From assembly GCA_035388785.1 (NCBI GenBank), contig DAOOQN010000004.1:4318-68317 (forward strand): 64,000 bases of DNA. The letters run 5' to 3'. Positions 20,796-63,498 of the stretch are shown in pieces. The notes below the pieces were generated by a model. The model was not told where the DNA came from. It searched no databases and was given only the letters and a program-made list of their open reading frames with translations. Each line of letters opens with the position of its first letter. Position 1 is the stretch's first letter. The position numbers and the translations under genes are program-made. The DNA comes from a bacterium (GTDB lineage: Bacteria; Patescibacteriota; Patescibacteriia; UBA2196).

Positions 20796-21215
20796 ATGTC
20801 ATTAATTAAATGGACGCCGGTTTTACCAGATTCATTTGATGAAATGGACCGTTGGTTTGACTGGCCAACTTCAAAAATGTCTTTTAACTACGCACCAGCT
20901 ATTGATATTTGGCAAGATCAAGACAATGTCTATGCCGAATGTCCTTTGGCTGGCATTAATCCTGAAGATGTATCGATCTCGATTGAAAATGATGTTTTGA
21001 CCATTGAGGGTAAAAGCGAGAAAAAAAGTGAAGTTGATGAAAGAAGTTATTATCGCAAAGAAGTACGCTATGGATCTTTTCATCGTGTGGTGGCTTTGCC
21101 TGCGGCTGTTGACAGTGAACAGGCCAAAGCCGAGTATGAAAATGGTGTGCTAAAGGTTTCTATTCCCAAAGAGGCCAAAGCTAAGCCCAGAACCGTTAAA
21201 GTGGAAGTCAAATAA
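20796..21215 (+). CDS. Small heat-shock protein (Hsp20 / alpha-crystallin family)
   Basis: 139 aa. The alpha-crystallin domain is clear (PAIDIWQDQDNVYAECPLAGINPEDVSISIENDVLTIEGK ... GVLKVSIPK). Confidence 0.85.
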   Translation: MSLIKWTPVLPDSFDEMDRWFDWPTSKMSFNYAPAIDIWQDQDNVYAECPLAGINPEDVSISIENDVLTIEGKSEKKSEVDERSYYRKEVRYGSFHRVVALPAAVDSEQAKAEYENGVLKVSIPKEAKAKPRTVKVEVK

Positions 21216-21293: not shown

Positions 21294-21614
21294 ATGCTTA
21301 AAAAAAATATAACTGAATATGCGCTAAAATTAATTAAAATTTGTCCAGTCTGTGGTATGAATTATAAAATAGAAAATATCAATGCGGTGGAAGAAAATGC
21401 AGAAGATTTTTTGGTCTGTTTTTCTTGCTCGGCCTGTCAAAGCTCGCTTTTATCGCGAGTGATGAGTATGCCCTTTGGTTTGGTTGGCTCGGCCATTTTG
21501 ACTGATTTAAAAGTTGAAGAAATTGATAAATTTAAAGACAGTGAGCCGGTTACGGCCAATGATGTTTTGAATATTTATGAAAGACTTGAGTTTGGACGCG
21601 GAAGAAAAGAATAA
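21294..21614 (+). CDS. Hypothetical Zn-ribbon protein
   Basis: 106 aa with CPVCG ... CFSCSACQ cysteine pairs. It lies within the heat-shock block between hsp20 and dnaK. Confidence 0.4.
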   Translation: MLKKNITEYALKLIKICPVCGMNYKIENINAVEENAEDFLVCFSCSACQSSLLSRVMSMPFGLVGSAILTDLKVEEIDKFKDSEPVTANDVLNIYERLEFGRGRKE

Positions 21615-42720: not shown

Positions 42721-43356
42721 ATGGACCACCAATTTACAAAAGATTATTTTTTTGGAAAAAAACTTTCAAATTACAAAAACTATAACTTATGGGATAATTC
42801 TTATTATTGGAAAGATGTTATAAAATACGTTAAAAAAAATAATCTTTCAGGAAAAATACTTGACGTTGGTTGTGCGTTTGGTTTTATGTTAAAGAGAATT
42901 AAGCCATATTTCAATCAAGTTTACGGTATAGATATTTCAGAATTTGCCATAGATCAGGCGCGTAAAAACACACCCACAGGAATTTTTAATGTAATCAATT
43001 TAAATAAAGAAGAATTACCATTTCCAGATAATTTTTTTGATTTTGTTACAGCGTTTGATGTTTTAGAACACACAGATGATGTAAAAAAGTCTTTAAATAA
43101 AATTACTTCTAAAATTAAAAATGGCGGTCAGCTTATGTTTAGTATGCCCTTAAAAAATACCTGGGCAGGAAAAATATTTTCTTGGTTTGATAAAGACGTA
43201 ACCCACGTAAGTATTCTTGAAGAAAATGATTTATTAAAAATAGTAAAAGAGTGCGATTTAAAAATTATTAAAAAAGGATATTATTTTAATGCACTTTATT
43301 TTAAGATTAGAGGCATTCCAGTTGATATTGAAATTGTTTGTGAAAAAAATAAATAA
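42721..43356 (+). CDS. Class I SAM-dependent methyltransferase
   Basis: 211 aa. SAM-binding motif I (ILDVGCAFGFM) and a Methyltransf_11-like layout are present. Confidence 0.7.
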   Translation: MDHQFTKDYFFGKKLSNYKNYNLWDNSYYWKDVIKYVKKNNLSGKILDVGCAFGFMLKRIKPYFNQVYGIDISEFAIDQARKNTPTGIFNVINLNKEELPFPDNFFDFVTAFDVLEHTDDVKKSLNKITSKIKNGGQLMFSMPLKNTWAGKIFSWFDKDVTHVSILEENDLLKIVKECDLKIIKKGYYFNALYFKIRGIPVDIEIVCEKNK

Positions 43357-43364
43357 TTTATTTA

Positions 43365-44363
43365 ATGAAAACTCACTATAAAATTTTTATTGGCGTGTTT
43401 ATTGTTTTTATTATTTTTTTAATAATAGCCAATTTTAATTTTGGCGCTGATAATAAAATAATTTGGGGTGCCACATTTTCCAAATTGCAAGCTCAAGAGT
43501 TGGGTATTGATTGGGTAATTGCTTATGGTGCCATGATTGATGAATTAAATTTAAAAACCGTTCGCTTACCAATCTATTGGCCGGATGTGGAAAAAAGTCC
43601 AGGAGTTTTTGATTTCTCAGCTTATGATTGGATGATTGAAAAAGCCTTACAAAAAAATATTGAAGTGGTACCGGTGTTAGGTCGACGCGTGCCACGCTGG
43701 CCAGAATGTCATACCCCAGAGATGTATAAAAATCTAACCGAAGACGAAATAAAAACAAAAATACTGGCTTTGCTTAAAGTTGAAGTGGAACATTTTAAAA
43801 AATATTCCAATATAAAAAAATGGCAGCTTGATAACGAACCGTTCGCTGATTTTTTTGGTCAGTGTCCACTTGGCGAGGAGAGTTTGGTACGTGAAGAAGC
43901 GGCCTTGGTGCGCTCACTTGATACACGTCCAGTTATGATGACTGAATCGGGCGAACTTTCCTCGTGGTTTAAGGGTGCAAAAATTGGTGATTTTTTGGGT
44001 GTATCTATGTATCGACAGACGTGGAATAAAAGATGGGGCTGGTTTAACTATCCTTTGCCACCAGCTTTTTATTATTTTAAAGCCCAAATAGTAAAACTTT
44101 TTACACCTGTCAAAAAAGTTATCAATACCGAGTTGCAAACAGAACCGTGGGCCATTGATAATAATTTAACAAAAATGGATTTATTTGATCAGTTTTATTC
44201 CATGGATTTGGCACAAGTAAAAAGTAACGTTAAATTTGCCCGTTCTGCTGGTCTGGATGAAGTTTATCTTTGGGGTGTGGAATGGTGGTGGTGGTTGGGT
44301 GATAAAAAAGGGGATTGGAGTTTTTGGGAATATGGCAAGACAATAAGTTCAGATAATTTTTAA
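43365..44363 (+). CDS. TM-anchored glycoside hydrolase, GH5/GH113-like (beta/alpha)8 barrel
   Basis: 332 aa. An N-terminal TM helix and a WQLDNEPF block (an NEP acid/base motif typical of clan GH-A) are present. The family assignment is tentative. Confidence 0.5.
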   Translation: MKTHYKIFIGVFIVFIIFLIIANFNFGADNKIIWGATFSKLQAQELGIDWVIAYGAMIDELNLKTVRLPIYWPDVEKSPGVFDFSAYDWMIEKALQKNIEVVPVLGRRVPRWPECHTPEMYKNLTEDEIKTKILALLKVEVEHFKKYSNIKKWQLDNEPFADFFGQCPLGEESLVREEAALVRSLDTRPVMMTESGELSSWFKGAKIGDFLGVSMYRQTWNKRWGWFNYPLPPAFYYFKAQIVKLFTPVKKVINTELQTEPWAIDNNLTKMDLFDQFYSMDLAQVKSNVKFARSAGLDEVYLWGVEWWWWLGDKKGDWSFWEYGKTISSDNF

Positions 44364-44406
44364 TTAAATAGATAAAATAATTACAGAATATGGGACAAAA
44401 ATAAAA

Positions 44407-44445
44407 CACCCCCGAAAAGATTGATGGGGGGTGCTGTTGTTTTGT
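44407..44445 (+). terminator. Intrinsic terminator CACCCCC ... GGGGGGTG plus T-run after the GH gene
   Basis: A GC-rich 7-8-bp stem followed by CTGTTGTTTTG. Confidence 0.5.
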
Positions 44446-44462
44446 AGCTCAGTCAGCCGGGT

Positions 44463-44855
44463 TTAAAATGGATTTACCCAGCCGGTGATCTCGATTCTCC
44501 AGCCGTGTAGTTCCATGATGATTGGAAACTTCTTTCCAAAATCCTTGGTATACGCAAAGTAATTGCTATATACCGACACTTCGACCACGTGCTTTGTAAG
44601 CTGACGTACTGTGGCAGAACCGCCACAGTCCACCAGCTTGCCGTCTTTATATAGCTTTATCAAACCGTTTCCCATGTAGGCGGTGGCCGGCACAGCGACC
44701 TCCAGGGTGATATGCCATCCCACGTTTACGTGGAGGCAGAGTTCATTAAACCCGGCCTTTATAATCGGGGTCGGGGTGACGGTGGTTTGTGCATTGGCGT
44801 TGACGACAAAGAGGGTCAGAGCCAGCACGATCAGTAGAAAAGACAGGTTTTTCAT
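44463..44855 (-). CDS. Small secreted protein encoded in an anomalously GC-rich (~50%) island; probably horizontally acquired
   Basis: Signal peptide MKNLSFLLIVLALTLFVVNANA followed by a ~110-aa mature domain. I prefer the ATG at 44855, which has a GGGAGG SD 7 nt upstream; the track ORF starts at a TTG at 44870. Codon usage (GCC, GGC, CTG, ACC) differs from the rest of the window. Confidence 0.55.
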   Translation of the reverse strand: MKNLSFLLIVLALTLFVVNANAQTTVTPTPIIKAGFNELCLHVNVGWHITLEVAVPATAYMGNGLIKLYKDGKLVDCGGSATVRQLTKHVVEVSVYSNYFAYTKDFGKKFPIIMELHGWRIEITGWVNPF

Positions 44856-45061
44856 GATACATCCTCCCAAAATAGATTATGCAACGATTCCACGAATTAT
44901 CTTTAGAATAACAGAGAGAGAGTTTTGTCAAGAGTAGTTATACACACAATTGAAATTTTGTGTAAAATTAGATAAATTTTGGATATTGATGATGTCTTTA
45001 AAACAAATAAAACTTATTTGTTTTTTTTAATAAATTAAGGTAAAATTTAAAGGTAAATTAA

Positions 45062-45135
45062 CGGGATATAGCGCAGTTGGCTAGCGCGCGTCGTTCGGGA
45101 CGACGAGGTCGCCGGTTCGAGTCCGGCTATCCCGA
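45062..45135 (+). tRNA. tRNA-Pro (anticodon CGG)
   Basis: I folded the cloverleaf by hand. Acceptor CGGGATA / TATCCCG. D-arm GCGC-AGTTGGCTA-GCGC. Anticodon arm CGTCG-TTCGGGA-CGACG, giving anticodon CGG with G37. T-arm GCCGG-TTCGAGT-CCGGC. No encoded CCA. Confidence 0.85.
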
Positions 45136-45156
45136 TAAAGTTGTTTAATATAATTA

Positions 45157-45191
45157 ATCTTGTTCAAAATATTTTTAAAATTTTGAGCAAG
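45157..45191. promoter_or_regulatory. Imperfect 12-bp inverted repeat (TCTTGTTCAAAAT-N9-ATTTTGAGCAAGA) upstream of the Cys-rich ORF
   Basis: An AT-rich inverted repeat with one mismatch, 14 nt upstream of the 45205 ATG. Its operator-like geometry resembles ArsR/SmtB-type 12-N-12 sites. Confidence 0.3.
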
Positions 45192-45204
45192 AACAGAGAT
45201 ACAT

Positions 45205-45342
45205 ATGGAAGATGAACAAAAAAAATGCACAGCTTGTGGTACCATAATTACTGACGAAACAAAGTGTGCTTGTAGTGAAAATTTATGTGCTGCCTGTTGC
45301 ACCTGTGATCCTGATTGCTCTTGTGGCTGTCAGGATAAATAG
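45205..45342 (+). CDS. 45-aa Cys-rich, metallothionein-like small protein
   Basis: MEDEQKKCTACGTIITDETKCACSENLCAACCTCDPDCSCGCQDK. It has 11 Cys in 45 aa, and its KCAC...LCAAC block resembles the bacterial SmtA KCACEPCLC core. It is below the ORF-track size cutoff. Confidence 0.45.
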   Translation: MEDEQKKCTACGTIITDETKCACSENLCAACCTCDPDCSCGCQDK

Positions 45343-45348
45343 ATTGCT

Positions 45349-46599
45349 ATGGATCTTTTTGACGAACATTATCAAAAAGAATTAGCCGCAAAAGCGCCGC
45401 TGGCCGATCGTCTTCGACCAGCGGCGCTGATTGATTATGTGGGCCAGGAAGAAATTATTGGTCCGGGTTCTCTTTTGCGTCAAGCCATAGAAAATGACGA
45501 ACTACCATCCATGATTTTGTGGGGGCCACCTGGTAGCGGTAAAACCACTCTGGCACGCATTATTGCTCAATTCACCAATTCTTTTTTTGTAGAAATTTCT
45601 GCTGTTACTTCCGGCGTTAAAGATTTGCGTGAAATAATTACTCAAGCAATAAATAAACGTAAACTTAATAATCAGCGCACCATTCTTTTTGTGGATGAAA
45701 TTCATCGTTGGAACAAAGCTCAACAAGATGGGCTTTTGCCTTTGATAGAGAAGGGAATTATGACTTTGATTGGTGCCACCACCGAAAATCCGTCTTTTGA
45801 AGTTATAGCGCCTTTATTATCACGTTCGCGAGTTTATGTCCTAAAGCCATTGTCACTGCCCAGTTTACAAATAATTATTCAGCGAGCTTTAACTGATACA
45901 GAAAAGGGACTGGCTAGTTATCAGGCTCTGTTGGACACCCAGGCTGAGATGTTATTATTGCAAGTCAGTAATGGCGATGCGCGCGTTATTCTAAATGCTT
46001 TGGAAATCGCTGTCAAAAATACTGCCCCCAATTCGCAAGGAAAAAGAATAGTTAATAAAAAAATAATTGCTGATGCTTTGCAGCAGCAGACCATGCTTTA
46101 TGATCGCGCGGGTGAAGAGCATTACAACATTATTTCGGCTTTACACAAATCTATGCGTGGCAATAATCCTGACGCTGCAGTTTACTGGTTGGCTAGAATG
46201 TTAGAAGCTGGTGAAGACCCGCTTTACATTGCCCGACGATTAGTGCGTTTTGCAGCCGAGGATGTGGGTTTGGCTGACAATTTTGCTGTCGTGCTGGCCA
46301 ATTCTGTTTTTGATGCATGTCACAAACTAGGTATGCCTGAGTGTAATGTCCACCTTACTCAATTGGTCATTTATCTGGCACAAGCCAAAAAAAGCATAGC
46401 AGCTTACCAGGCTTATGGCGCTGCACAAAAAGATATTAAAGAACTTGGCTATTTGCCTGTGCCATTGCATTTACGCAATGCGCCCACCAAACTAATGAAA
46501 GAGCTTAATTATGGTAAGGATTATAAATATACCCCCTTGGAAGATTCACAAGATCAAGAGTATTTTCCAGAAGAATTAAAAGGCAGAAAATATATTTAA
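45349..46599 (+). CDS. rarA: Replication-associated recombination protein A (RarA/MgsA AAA+ ATPase)
   Basis: 416 aa. The AAA+ block LRPAALIDYVGQEEIIG ... MILWGPPGSGKTTLARIIA and a C-terminal MgsA helical domain are present. Confidence 0.9.
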   Translation: MDLFDEHYQKELAAKAPLADRLRPAALIDYVGQEEIIGPGSLLRQAIENDELPSMILWGPPGSGKTTLARIIAQFTNSFFVEISAVTSGVKDLREIITQAINKRKLNNQRTILFVDEIHRWNKAQQDGLLPLIEKGIMTLIGATTENPSFEVIAPLLSRSRVYVLKPLSLPSLQIIIQRALTDTEKGLASYQALLDTQAEMLLLQVSNGDARVILNALEIAVKNTAPNSQGKRIVNKKIIADALQQQTMLYDRAGEEHYNIISALHKSMRGNNPDAAVYWLARMLEAGEDPLYIARRLVRFAAEDVGLADNFAVVLANSVFDACHKLGMPECNVHLTQLVIYLAQAKKSIAAYQAYGAAQKDIKELGYLPVPLHLRNAPTKLMKELNYGKDYKYTPLEDSQDQEYFPEELKGRKYI

Positions 46600-58698: not shown

Positions 58699-60441
58699 AT
58701 GGATCATTTAACCATAAAAATAGTTGGTCCAGCCGGCTTTGGTATCAAGGTTACAGGCATGATGCTGGCTAAACACTTTTTAAGAAGTGACTGTTTTGTG
58801 TTTGCCTACACCGAATATCCATCCTTAATTCGTGGCGGACATAATACTTTTCAAGTTGATATAGCAAAAAAAGAAATTAATTCCGCAGCTGAAAAATGTG
58901 ATATTTTAATTGCTTTAAACAAAGACAGTTTAATTAAAGAATTAAAAAATATAAACACTAGTGGTCTAATTATTTATGATGAACAAATAGAAATTGATTT
59001 TTCTTTGCCAAACAAAATAAATCTTTTACCGTCACCTTTAATGGAGATAGCTAAAAATAACGGTGGTGAATTAATGAAAAATACAGTTGCCCTTGGGATA
59101 TTACTAGGAGCTTTAAATTTATCTTTAGAAAATTTGAATAAAATTTTAACAGAAACTTTTGGACACAAAGGCGCAATAGCAGAACAAAACAAAAAGGCTG
59201 TTCAAGCTGGTCTTGAGTGGATAAAAAATAATCCAATTAATTCAAAAATTGCAGCACAATATATAATGACGGTAAATAATAACAAGAGTTTTAAACAAGA
59301 TAATTTATTTATCTCTGGCAATCAGGCTTGTGCTTTGGGAGCCATAGCCGCTGGTTGTCAGCTTTATTCAGCCTATCCCATGACTCCAGCCAGTGAAATT
59401 TTGCATTATTTGGTCGCTAAACAGCAGGCAAGCGGTATGGTGGTCCATCAGCCAGAAGATGAAATTGCGGCCGTCCACGTGGCTCTAGGGGCTTCATTTA
59501 CGGGCTCCAGGGCTGCCTGTGGCACTTCTGGAGGTGGTTTTGCTCTTATGAATGAGGGTCTATCGCTGGCTGGTATGTTAGAGTTGCCAATAGTTATTTT
59601 TGAAGTTATGCGTCCAGCGCCAGCCACTGGTTTACCCACCTGGACCGAACAGGGAGATTTAATGTATGTGGTTCACGCTGGTCATGGTGATTTTCCACGT
59701 CTTGTCTTGGCCCCTGGAAATCCAACTGAATGTTTTTTATTAACTCAGCAAGCTTTTAATCTGGCTGATAAATATCAAATTCCAGTTATTGTTTTATCTG
59801 ATAAATTTTTGGGTGAATCAACTTATACAACAAGCAAAAAATTATTTTCAAAAATAGAAAAGAAGGCACGAGGAAAAATTTTAATAGTTAATCAAAATCA
59901 ATTGGCCGAAAACCAAACTTTGTTTGCGCGTTATAAAAACGAAAAAGACAATGTTTCACCACGTCCCATCCCCGGAGTTTTAAATGGAGAATATATTGCC
60001 AATTCTGATGAGCATGACGAATTTGGTTTAACCAACGAGTCAACTGTCTGTCGCAATGAGCAGATGAAAAGAAGAATGGGTAAAACATTAAATTTAAAAA
60101 AAGAAATTCCTTTACCAACTTTATATGGTCCAAAAAGCGCTAATCTAACTTTAGTTTGTTGGGGTTCAATGTTAGGTCCAAGTTTAGATGCCTTGAATGA
60201 AATTAATAAAGACAAAAAACAAATTAATTTAATTCATTTTAGTTATGTTTGGCCGCTACCCTTGGGTTTGGATAAATTTTTAAAACAATTTAGTAAATTA
60301 ATTTTAATAGAAAATAATTTTTCCGCTCAACTTGGTATTTTAATTCGTCAAGAAACTGGCACTGAAATAAAAGATAAAATTTTAAAATATGATGGTCGTC
60401 CACTTTGGAAAGAAGAAATAATAAAAACCGTTAAAAAATAA
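58699..60441 (+). CDS. 2-oxoacid:ferredoxin oxidoreductase, fused gamma-alpha subunit
   Basis: 580 aa. An N-terminal gamma-type domain (IKIVGPAGFGIKVTG ... RGGHNTFQVDI) is followed by an alpha domain (ISGNQACALGAIAAG ... PMTPASEI). Confidence 0.85.
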   Translation: MDHLTIKIVGPAGFGIKVTGMMLAKHFLRSDCFVFAYTEYPSLIRGGHNTFQVDIAKKEINSAAEKCDILIALNKDSLIKELKNINTSGLIIYDEQIEIDFSLPNKINLLPSPLMEIAKNNGGELMKNTVALGILLGALNLSLENLNKILTETFGHKGAIAEQNKKAVQAGLEWIKNNPINSKIAAQYIMTVNNNKSFKQDNLFISGNQACALGAIAAGCQLYSAYPMTPASEILHYLVAKQQASGMVVHQPEDEIAAVHVALGASFTGSRAACGTSGGGFALMNEGLSLAGMLELPIVIFEVMRPAPATGLPTWTEQGDLMYVVHAGHGDFPRLVLAPGNPTECFLLTQQAFNLADKYQIPVIVLSDKFLGESTYTTSKKLFSKIEKKARGKILIVNQNQLAENQTLFARYKNEKDNVSPRPIPGVLNGEYIANSDEHDEFGLTNESTVCRNEQMKRRMGKTLNLKKEIPLPTLYGPKSANLTLVCWGSMLGPSLDALNEINKDKKQINLIHFSYVWPLPLGLDKFLKQFSKLILIENNFSAQLGILIRQETGTEIKDKILKYDGRPLWKEEIIKTVKK

Positions 60442-63075: not shown

Positions 63076-63498
63076 GTGCCTAAAAAAATTATAGCTTTTA
63101 CTGATGGTGGAGCCAGAAACAACCCAGGACCAGCCGGCATTGGGGTGGTATTTTTTGTTGCAGAAAATTTAACCAAACCATTGGCAACCTATAAAAAATA
63201 CATTGGTTCCACCACTAATAACCAAGCCGAGTATAAAGCTGTAGTCTTGGCTTTAGAAGAAGCCAAAAAATTAAAAGTCCAAGAAATTGAAGTGAGGCTC
63301 GATTCAGAGCTAGTTTGCAATCAAATTAATGGTCAATTTAAATTAAAAAATAAAGATTTCCAGGATAGTTTTATTAAAATTTGGAATTTAAGGCAAAGCT
63401 TTAAAAAATCAATTTTTAAATATATTCCACGCGAACAAAACAAATTAGCTGATAAATTAGTTAACCAAGCTATTGATGCAGCCAGCTTAAATTATTGA
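63076..63498 (+). CDS. rnhA: Ribonuclease HI
   Basis: 140 aa. The block FTDGGARNNPGPAGIGVV ... TNNQAEYKAVVLALE is present. The start codon is a GTG. Confidence 0.75.
   Translation: MPKKIIAFTDGGARNNPGPAGIGVVFFVAENLTKPLATYKKYIGSTTNNQAEYKAVVLALEEAKKLKVQEIEVRLDSELVCNQINGQFKLKNKDFQDSFIKIWNLRQSFKKSIFKYIPREQNKLADKLVNQAIDAASLNY

Follow-up and report, generated by a model that had tools for sequence, protein, structure and literature searches.

Why should a single small gene in an AT-rich genome be written largely in GC-rich codons? The question is raised by a window of 64,000 nucleotides (the whole stretch of DNA analysed) from a bacterium of the Patescibacteriota (GenBank assembly GCA_035388785.1, contig DAOOQN010000004.1, positions 4,318 to 68,317), in which a coding sequence for a signal-peptide protein of 130 amino acids (aa), located at 44463..44855 on the minus strand and next to a tRNA-Pro gene, stands out by its base composition. 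Compositional islands beside tRNA genes are routinely scored as recent horizontal transfer, and a preliminary description of the locus also regarded the island as recently acquired from a donor of higher GC content, possibly a host. Here, this default fails by its own standards, and the evidence points towards a synonymous recoding of individual genes, tied to messenger RNA (mRNA) structure, in symbiont-like genomes of the candidate phyla radiation (CPR). The reading we favour, at a probability of roughly 0.45 and thus somewhat short of even odds, is that of a resident orphan gene, which encodes a secreted all-beta protein and whose GC-rich silent sites are maintained for the sake of mRNA structure.

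A single GC-rich gene in an AT-rich genome

The GC content of the 64-kb window is 0.351 and not about 32%, as stated at first, compared with 0.484 for the stretch 44446-44900 and 0.491 for the coding sequence (CDS) 44463-44855 itself. The top 400-bp GC peak of the window starts at 44451 and reaches 0.50 (mean of the 400-bp windows 0.351, standard deviation (sd) 0.042). Resolved by codon position, the gene has GC contents of 0.51 (GC1), 0.35 (GC2) and 0.61 (GC3), as opposed to 0.450±0.059, 0.325±0.054 and 0.281±0.037 in the 59 other open reading frames (ORFs) of the window, among which the highest GC3 is 0.368. Since GC1 and GC2 are ordinary and GC3 lies about 9 sd out, the anomaly is almost entirely a third-position effect. 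The codons enriched in the gene are GCC, ACC, CTG, ATC, AAG, GTC and GTG, where the genome usually employs GCT, ACT, TTA, ATT, AAA and GTT. The sharp discontinuity in GC content and codon usage noticed in the preliminary description is thus confirmed by sliding-window GC and GC3, and the enrichment of GCC, ACC and CTG is borne out by the codon counts.

The amino-acid composition of the protein is native-like (FYMINK residues 0.315 versus 0.328 in a proteome sample, GARP residues 0.20 versus 0.21, K:R 9:2), and the GC excess of the gene is purely synonymous. At the edges of the island the GC content drops sharply, to 0.238 in the 5' intergenic region (44856-45061) and to 0.384 in the 3' untranslated region with the terminator (44364-44462). 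The island consists of a single CDS plus its own terminator hairpin, and the discontinuity is indeed confined, as had been noted, to one small signal-peptide gene between a terminator and tRNA-Pro. The next-highest GC peak in the window (59151-59750, 0.49 over 400 bp) falls within a pyruvate:ferredoxin oxidoreductase-type gene (58699-60441, plus strand) with an overall GC3 of 0.24, and presumably stems from amino-acid content.

The 130-aa ORF is a real coding gene under purifying selection. Its sense frame is free of stops and has a ratio of nonsynonymous to synonymous divergence (omega) of 0.26-0.33 (0.27-0.29 in the comparison of all six frames). Stops interrupt each of the other five frames, where omega is 0.4-1.4, and indels among the orthologues are all multiples of three. 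The same protein with the same neighbours is found on at least 16 independently assembled contigs (ENA, JGI, Logan and NCBI), which are 99.9-100% identical to the window; a chimeric assembly, considered earlier as a possible cause together with contamination, is therefore rejected. With contigs this similar, single-nucleotide polymorphisms within the species were of no use for the analysis. Six Logan contigs belong to the window species; five end within tRNA-Pro (window 45098-45112) and the sixth stops 1 nt short of the tRNA end; these are assembly breaks at k-mers shared with other genomes and no evidence of structural variation.

Homologues of the protein are exceedingly few. When 1.84 billion cluster representatives were searched exhaustively with HMMER, just two further members emerged, P0003 and P0004, the remaining matches being repeats or noise, and a word-indexed search of 5.8 billion clusters returned only the protein itself and P0002. 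P0003 is the orthologue from a sister species (L011, UBA2196), and P0004 is a protein of 126 aa with the same architecture and 36% identity (E 6e-9). Pattern scans of metagenomic and viral contigs (including JGI) and tblastn searches of phages and plasmids yielded no homologue. Since no homologue turned up elsewhere, GC-rich genomes, phages and plasmids yielded none either, and every copy with an examinable contig lies in an AT-rich genome. The searches therefore lend no support to the suggested donor of higher GC content, be it a host or not.

Searches with the flanking genes put the organism among the Patescibacteria, close to UBA2196 and Kuenenbacteria. Two sister species carry an orthologue in the same slot, with 70% aa identity in L010 and approximately 60% in L011. 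Synonymous divergence (dS) of the flanks is 0.13-0.57 between the window and L010 and 0.6-0.84 between the window and L011. The gene was thus already in place before the three sister species split, and a recent acquisition is not supported. Among these close relatives there is no presence/absence polymorphism: the gene is found in the window, L010 and L011, and contigs of the same species are identical. Two distant relatives carry other content in the slot, namely 1.9 kb of small ORFs ahead of the same tRNA-Pro, Cys-rich ORF and MgsA gene in L013, and a DUF4012 gene in L012; accordingly, the gene was either gained or born in the ancestor of the small clade, or lost elsewhere. The homologues share the GC-rich silent sites, with a GC3 of 0.53 in L010, 0.62 in L011 and 0.66 in P0004, and the contigs that carry P0004 are AT-rich (other genes GC about 0.30, GC3 about 0.25). 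Homologues of this kind, equally GC-rich in low-GC genomes, had been named in the preliminary description as a sign of selection rather than transfer.

Transcript folding and the fate of the silent sites

Folding of the transcripts was assessed in silico as a z score, in which the minimum free energy (MFE) of the real sequence is compared with synonymous-codon shuffles that keep both the protein and the codon counts. The four homologues score -3.2 (window), -2.5, -4.4 and -6.1, the window gene ranging overall from -3.2 to -4.3; compared with dinucleotide shuffles, the window transcript gives a z of -3.15. As controls served 63 sequences, comprising 24 native AT-rich genes of the window (-0.68±1.24), 12 AT-rich windows of a second genome described below (+0.7 to -2.8) and 27 ordinary genes from GC-rich genomes with a GC3 of 0.46-0.88 (-0.69±1.15). 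The last set folds in an ordinary manner, and hence GC-richness alone is not the source of the folding excess. The family differs from all 63 controls (-0.72±1.18) at P=0.001 (Mann-Whitney).

The signal survives shuffling within blocks of 33 codons (z -2.2 to -5.2; also given as -2.2 to -3.8). Moreover, folding is stronger for the sense than for the antisense strand (mean z -4.66 versus -3.16, 14 windows), which points to the mRNA and not to the DNA. Counts of perfect hairpins (stems of 7 bp or more) are raised in some genes only (window gene P=0.07), and the MFE z score is the robust measure. The longest local hairpin within the CDS is located at 44598..44639 (minus strand) and consists of 18-nt arms and a 6-nt loop with a perfect 8-bp core (ACTGTGGC/GCCACAGT); it is retained just partly in L010 and L011. 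The only native control genes that approach the z of the 130-aa gene are those for Hsp20 (20796-21215), the next ORF (21294-21614) and RNase H (63076-63498), with z scores of -2.9 to -3.6; heat-shock genes may carry regulatory RNA structure.

The substitution pattern at third positions bears on whether the high GC3 is maintained or decaying. On the window branch, 5 changes from GC to AT stand against 8 from AT to GC, where neutrality with AT bias predicts about 79% GC-to-AT changes (P=0.0015). Judged by the synonymous turnover between strong and weak base pairs (S/W) in the flanks, the relaxation factor per lineage since the split of the window species and L011 is about 0.53. Consequently, passive decay to the present GC3 would require a GC3 of about 0.8-1.0 at the root. 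With about 0.8 at the root, the donor would have had at least 60% GC and proteins expected to be rich in Arg, Ala and Gly, which is hard to square with the native composition of the 130-aa protein. A two-state likelihood comparison slightly favours a stationary GC3 (about 0.57) over decay towards 0.25. In summary, the GC excess is no passive relic of a recent insertion, as it is synonymous only, occurs in every known homologue and is accompanied by excess folding.

A second genome and the competing explanations

A second AT-rich genome (L025, L030, L031 and L033) co-occurs in the same samples and carries several GC-rich genes, each with a signal peptide (L033 2492-4444 and 8519-10627; L025 106-1994; L031 2099-3987). 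These include P0004 and P0009 (447 aa), P0013 and P0010 in another strain, as well as an island of a 330-aa and a 220-aa lipoprotein-like gene. Their GC3 ranges from 0.48 to 0.72 and their folding z from -2.8 to -8.4 (P=4e-7 versus controls). Each gene possesses its own AT-rich promoter-like region, a GGAGG motif and a GC-rich terminator, and the coding sequence of P0010 is a chain of near-perfect hairpins of 8-15 bp. Three of these genes encode FlgD_ig/Por_Secre_tail C-terminal domains, which are 50-77% identical to sorting domains of the type IX secretion system (T9SS) from Zixibacteria, Marinimicrobia, Ignavibacteriales and KSB1, and the end of the 330-aa protein resembles that of an outer-membrane beta-barrel (…GGATIVF).

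At the slot 5' of GHL15 the strains of the second genome differ by a cassette swap, with P0013 and P0010 in L033 (8519-10627) versus P0004 and P0009 in L030 (1-1610) and L031 (2099-3987). The downstream DNA on the GHL15 side is 98% identical, the segments for the C-terminal domains alone can be aligned (78-81%), and several contigs end exactly at the slot. Between two of the GC-rich genes (L033 3600-3690) lies a tRNA-like sequence with an acceptor-like stem (GAGAGAG…CTCTCTC) and T-loop motifs resembling GGTTCGAG. ARAGORN and Rfam (E up to 1) both fail to recognise it, and it may be a degenerate tRNA remnant. The DUF4012 gene and the many glycosyltransferase genes of the second genome are CPR-like. 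Another FlgD_ig/Por_Secre_tail protein with a signal peptide, P0011, is encoded on a JGI contig of 206 kb (3300009105; L035 10001-11302) with a GC3 of about 0.2; its gene has an elevated GC3 of 0.41 and a weak folding excess (z -1.1 to -2.0), and a gene for an archaeal-type AF_1845 domain is located nearby.

Every GC3 outlier in the AT-rich loci examined encodes a signal-peptide protein, a tally that is biased, since most loci were retrieved through such genes. Tentatively, and with a chance of perhaps no better than one in a few, the GC-rich genes may form an undescribed class in AT-rich, small-genome bacteria of the CPR type: self-contained signal-peptide genes whose silent sites are recoded to G/C for hairpins (GC3 0.5-0.7 versus a background of 0.25-0.28; folding z -3 to -8). 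If true, the recoding would provide surface or secreted proteins that evolve fast with transcripts of special stability or special handling, GC islands in such genomes could not be read as horizontal transfer, and mRNA structure could double the GC3 of one gene. The coupling of a gene-specific doubling of GC3 with coding-region structure, as seen by in-silico folding of few sequences, appears to be undescribed in the literature searched.

For the 130-aa gene itself, we infer selection on the mRNA and its physiological purpose. Selection on the transcript would hold the silent sites G/C-rich, and plausible targets would be dense local hairpins that yield a stable or long-lived mRNA, or a paced translation of the exported protein. 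A number of observations weigh against this reading. The signal of the window gene is moderate, with a z of -2.2 upon block shuffling and 3% of the controls as low as -3.19, and the three orthologues do not count as independent samples. RNAalifold, which has little power with three sequences, detected no conserved structure (covariation term +5.9, 5 of 110 pairs compensatory, many broken), and the claim accordingly concerns many hairpins, i.e., their density, and not one structure. Maintenance of GC3 is not universal either: the L010 branch shows 12 changes from GC to AT versus 3 from AT to GC and a lower GC3, a pattern resembling decay, and the parsimony polarisation on which such counts depend is biased at this divergence. 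The likelihood edge over neutral decay is small (delta lnL 0.4-2.7). Finally, some of the GC-rich genes of the second genome encode T9SS C-terminal domains of the type found in the Fibrobacteres-Chlorobi-Bacteroidetes (FCB) group and have a foreign-looking amino-acid composition.

The last two points feed an ancient transfer, which we consider unlikely but serious. In this scenario, the gene entered the ancestor of the three species from a GC-richer, unsampled or unrecognisable donor and has been ameliorating slowly ever since, the GC excess being passive. A model of neutral decay that starts from a GC3 of about 0.78-0.81 at the root is not rejected; the 12:3 excess on the L010 branch fits, as does the absence of the gene from the slot in L013 and L012, a tRNA-adjacent slot that is variable between relatives. 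Furthermore, the GC-rich genes with FCB-type T9SS domains in the co-occurring AT-rich genomes are most simply explained as transferred; they indicate that transfer from GC-richer diderms does occur in this community, and this keeps the possibility alive. Yet, no collection searched holds a donor homologue, and the native-like amino acids do not match the composition expected for a donor of at least 60% GC. The GC boundary coincides with the start of translation, and the AT-rich stretch 5' of it shows the same kind of conservation as the flanks. Moreover, the window branch lacks a GC-to-AT excess, ordinary genes of GC-rich genomes show no folding excess, and the very distant homologue P0004 is equally GC3-rich in another AT-rich genome.

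Recurrent cassette replacement is improbable. Here, alleles would be reimported from a GC-rich pool by homologous recombination via the flanks, such that each copy would be young. A strain-level replacement of GC-rich secreted-protein genes is seen in the second genome between the 98%-identical flanks of the slot 5' of GHL15 (L033 versus L030). Several features of the 130-aa gene agree: the protein is 59-70% identical among the species where the flanks reach about 92%, window and L010 differ twice as much at synonymous sites in the gene as in the flanks (0.40 versus 0.20), and the pairwise distances are nearly star-like. However, amino-acid identity and nonsynonymous divergence (dN) keep the grouping of the flanks (window with L010), no source pool is visible in the databases searched, and no alternative allele appears among the contigs of the window species, which come from many samples and share 99.9-100% identity. 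Even so, the GC- and hairpin-richness of the pool would still have to be explained.

The interpretation offered at the outset, a recent integrase-mediated island from a host or high-GC donor inserted at a tRNA hotspot, is hardly credible. What speaks for it is a compositional outlier adjoining a tRNA gene. The 130-aa gene is, however, situated on the 5' side of tRNA-Pro, 206 bp from the tRNA 5' end, and is transcribed away from it. The ORF list of the window contains no integrase or other mobility gene in or beside the island, and the region 43800-45600 harbours no att-like direct repeat, tRNA fragment or tRNA duplication (chance repeats of at most 23 nt only). In addition, the gene is present in three species (dS 0.6-0.84), lacks a donor and consists of one CDS preceded by a promoter region of native appearance. 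tRNA-Pro is a neighbour and not an integration site.

Equally remote are ordinary translational codon adaptation, which the strong Shine-Dalgarno sequence and the self-contained transcription unit might suggest by pointing to expression, but which is excluded as the cause of a GC3 of 0.61 by the merely 0.30-0.34 of the window genes for ribosomal proteins L31 and L25, DnaK and Hsp20, as well as an assembly chimera (at least 16 independent contigs), a structured or non-coding RNA gene (the tRNA was the sole Rfam match on the window and on 44300-45200, all others having E >0.7 and lying far under the gathering thresholds) and an antisense gene (ORFs such as 44683-44937 on the plus strand are by-products, the frames having stops or an omega of at least 0.4).

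The locus, its product and known systems

Preceding the ATG (44855-44853; TAA at 44465-44463) by 7 nt is the Shine-Dalgarno sequence GGGAGG (44863..44868, minus strand), of which GGAGG is kept in L010 and L011. Its sequestration by downstream C-runs was considered and dropped, as the pairing probability of 0.59-0.87 compares with 0.48±0.26 in the controls and the partners are not conserved. Further upstream, the -35-like box TTGACA (44926..44931, minus strand) is conserved in 3/3 orthologous loci. There is no canonical -10 box at 16-18 nt from TTGACA, and a consensus scan revealed no minus-strand promoter there; the box is therefore a candidate -35 element only, and a promoter is not established. 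These elements lie in the AT-rich intergenic region (44856..45061, GC 0.24) between the 130-aa gene and the divergent tRNA-Pro gene, which is conserved between the species at roughly the level of the flanking DNA. tRNA-Pro itself (45062..45135, plus strand, anticodon CGG) was identified by ARAGORN and Rfam (RF00005, 66.2 bits).

On the other side, an intrinsic terminator is found at 44395..44436 (minus strand), where a GC-rich stem-loop is followed by TTTTATTTTT. RNAfold predicts a 9-bp G/C stem with -20.2 kcal/mol (67 nt, 44396-44462), and the element is conserved in L010 and L011. The terminator is bidirectional and thus common to the 130-aa gene and the convergent gene 43365-44363. A promoter/terminator scanner overlooked the stem-loop because its loop exceeds 8 nt, and folding confirmed the hairpin.

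The slot reads, in order, a 332-aa gene resembling glycoside hydrolases (GH-like), the 130-aa gene, tRNA-Pro, a small Cys-rich ORF and MgsA, and no other ORFs are present between 43365 and 46599. The Cys-rich ORF (45205-45342, plus strand) encodes 45 aa with CxxC and CC motifs and no Pfam match. It is conserved as a 52-aa ORF in L011 and as the C-terminal part of an 82-aa ORF in L013, and its product may be a small metal-binding protein. A methyltransferase gene (42721-43356, plus strand) has the lowest GC content of the neighbourhood (0.26, GC3 0.19). In its place, UBA2196 (L011/L026) has a gene for a 243-aa glycosyltransferase of family GT2, and the dS of the methyltransferase gene versus L010 is 0.13, far below that of its neighbours (0.27-0.57), which hints at another exchangeable slot or recent recombination.

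The 130-aa pre-protein starts with MKNLSFLLIVLALTLFVVNANA, followed by QTT after the cleavage point. On inspection, residues 1-22 (44790..44855, minus strand) read as a putative Sec-type signal peptide, MKN / LSFLLIVLALTLFVV / NANA followed by Q, with Lys in the n-region, a hydrophobic core of 15 residues and A-x-A at -3/-1. Cleavage is predicted after ANA, a lipobox Cys is lacking, and the pattern is present in 4/4 homologues; in the AlphaFold2 (AF2) model, residues 4-21 appear as a lone separate helix. The protein is thus predicted to be secreted via Sec and signal peptidase I (SPase I). The mature domain of about 108 aa (44466..44789, minus strand) is modelled by AF2 as all-beta with 7 strands. 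With an alignment of 4 sequences, the mean predicted local distance difference test (pLDDT) score is 80.4 and about 90 over residues 31-126; with 2 sequences the model is poor (pLDDT 55). The motifs LHVNVGW, YSNYFAY and ITGW of the mature domain are conserved among the homologues.

Foldseek searches of PDB and BFVD produced no significant fold match (best E about 0.01, TM score 0.3-0.4, Ig-like sandwiches), and PDB contains no sequence match. In Pfam, the best hit is PF11389 (Porin_OmpL1) with 15.8 bits and E 0.0083, under the gathering threshold of 27 bits, and P0003 and P0004 have no Pfam match. We are therefore dealing with an orphan protein that has a confident predicted fold and no known relatives. 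The dN of the gene (0.17-0.27) exceeds that of its flanking neighbours (0.035-0.05) about fivefold, and hence the product is probably a secreted or surface-exposed, fast-evolving protein.

If confirmed, a resident gene with silent sites maintained for mRNA structure calls for caution with detectors of horizontal gene transfer that rely on GC3, and provides a tractable bacterial example of strong selection on RNA structure in a coding region. It would also supply a set of markers (high GC3, hairpin-rich, signal peptide) for the secreted or surface proteins that are likeliest to act in contacts between CPR bacteria and their hosts.

Several known systems invite comparison. At the protein level, IrmA of Escherichia coli (PDB 5ek5) and other small Ig-like or beta-sandwich proteins likewise comprise a secreted all-beta domain of about 110 aa (secretion of the 130-aa protein being predicted), and the top Foldseek matches are sandwiches of the IrmA, TEAD and MHC alpha-3 type. 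In contrast to such homology, these matches are non-significant (E at least 0.01, TM 0.3-0.4, identity 6-14%), and the 130-aa protein shares neither sequence similarity nor a Pfam family with them.

Integrative elements and genomic islands linked to tRNA genes also show a deviant composition beside a tRNA and a slot content that differs in distant relatives. Unlike these, the island described here lies on the 5' side of the tRNA, has neither an integrase nor att repeats, carries a cargo of one CDS that is conserved in three species, and has a GC boundary that coincides with the start codon. The amelioration model, reportedly put forward by Lawrence and Ochman for compositionally atypical “alien” genes, would likewise account for a GC3 outlier in an AT-rich genome and for a GC-to-AT excess in one lineage (L010). 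The 130-aa gene differs in its native amino acids, in the lack of a donor, in a GC3 that was kept after an S/W turnover in the flanks of about 0.5 per lineage, and in an excess of mRNA folding that is not expected for a passive relic.

The closest parallel is selection for mRNA secondary structure in coding regions, which Katz and Burge are said to have described in 2003, and the link of structured coding sequences with functional half-life reportedly made by Mauger et al. in 2019. There, too, the real sequence out-folds its synonymous shuffles, and the sense strand out-folds the antisense strand. Distinct from these cases, the present effect is large (z -3 to -8 versus about -0.7 in controls) and gene-specific, goes along with a doubled GC3 in an AT-rich genome and, in the examples at hand, is confined to genes for signal-peptide proteins.

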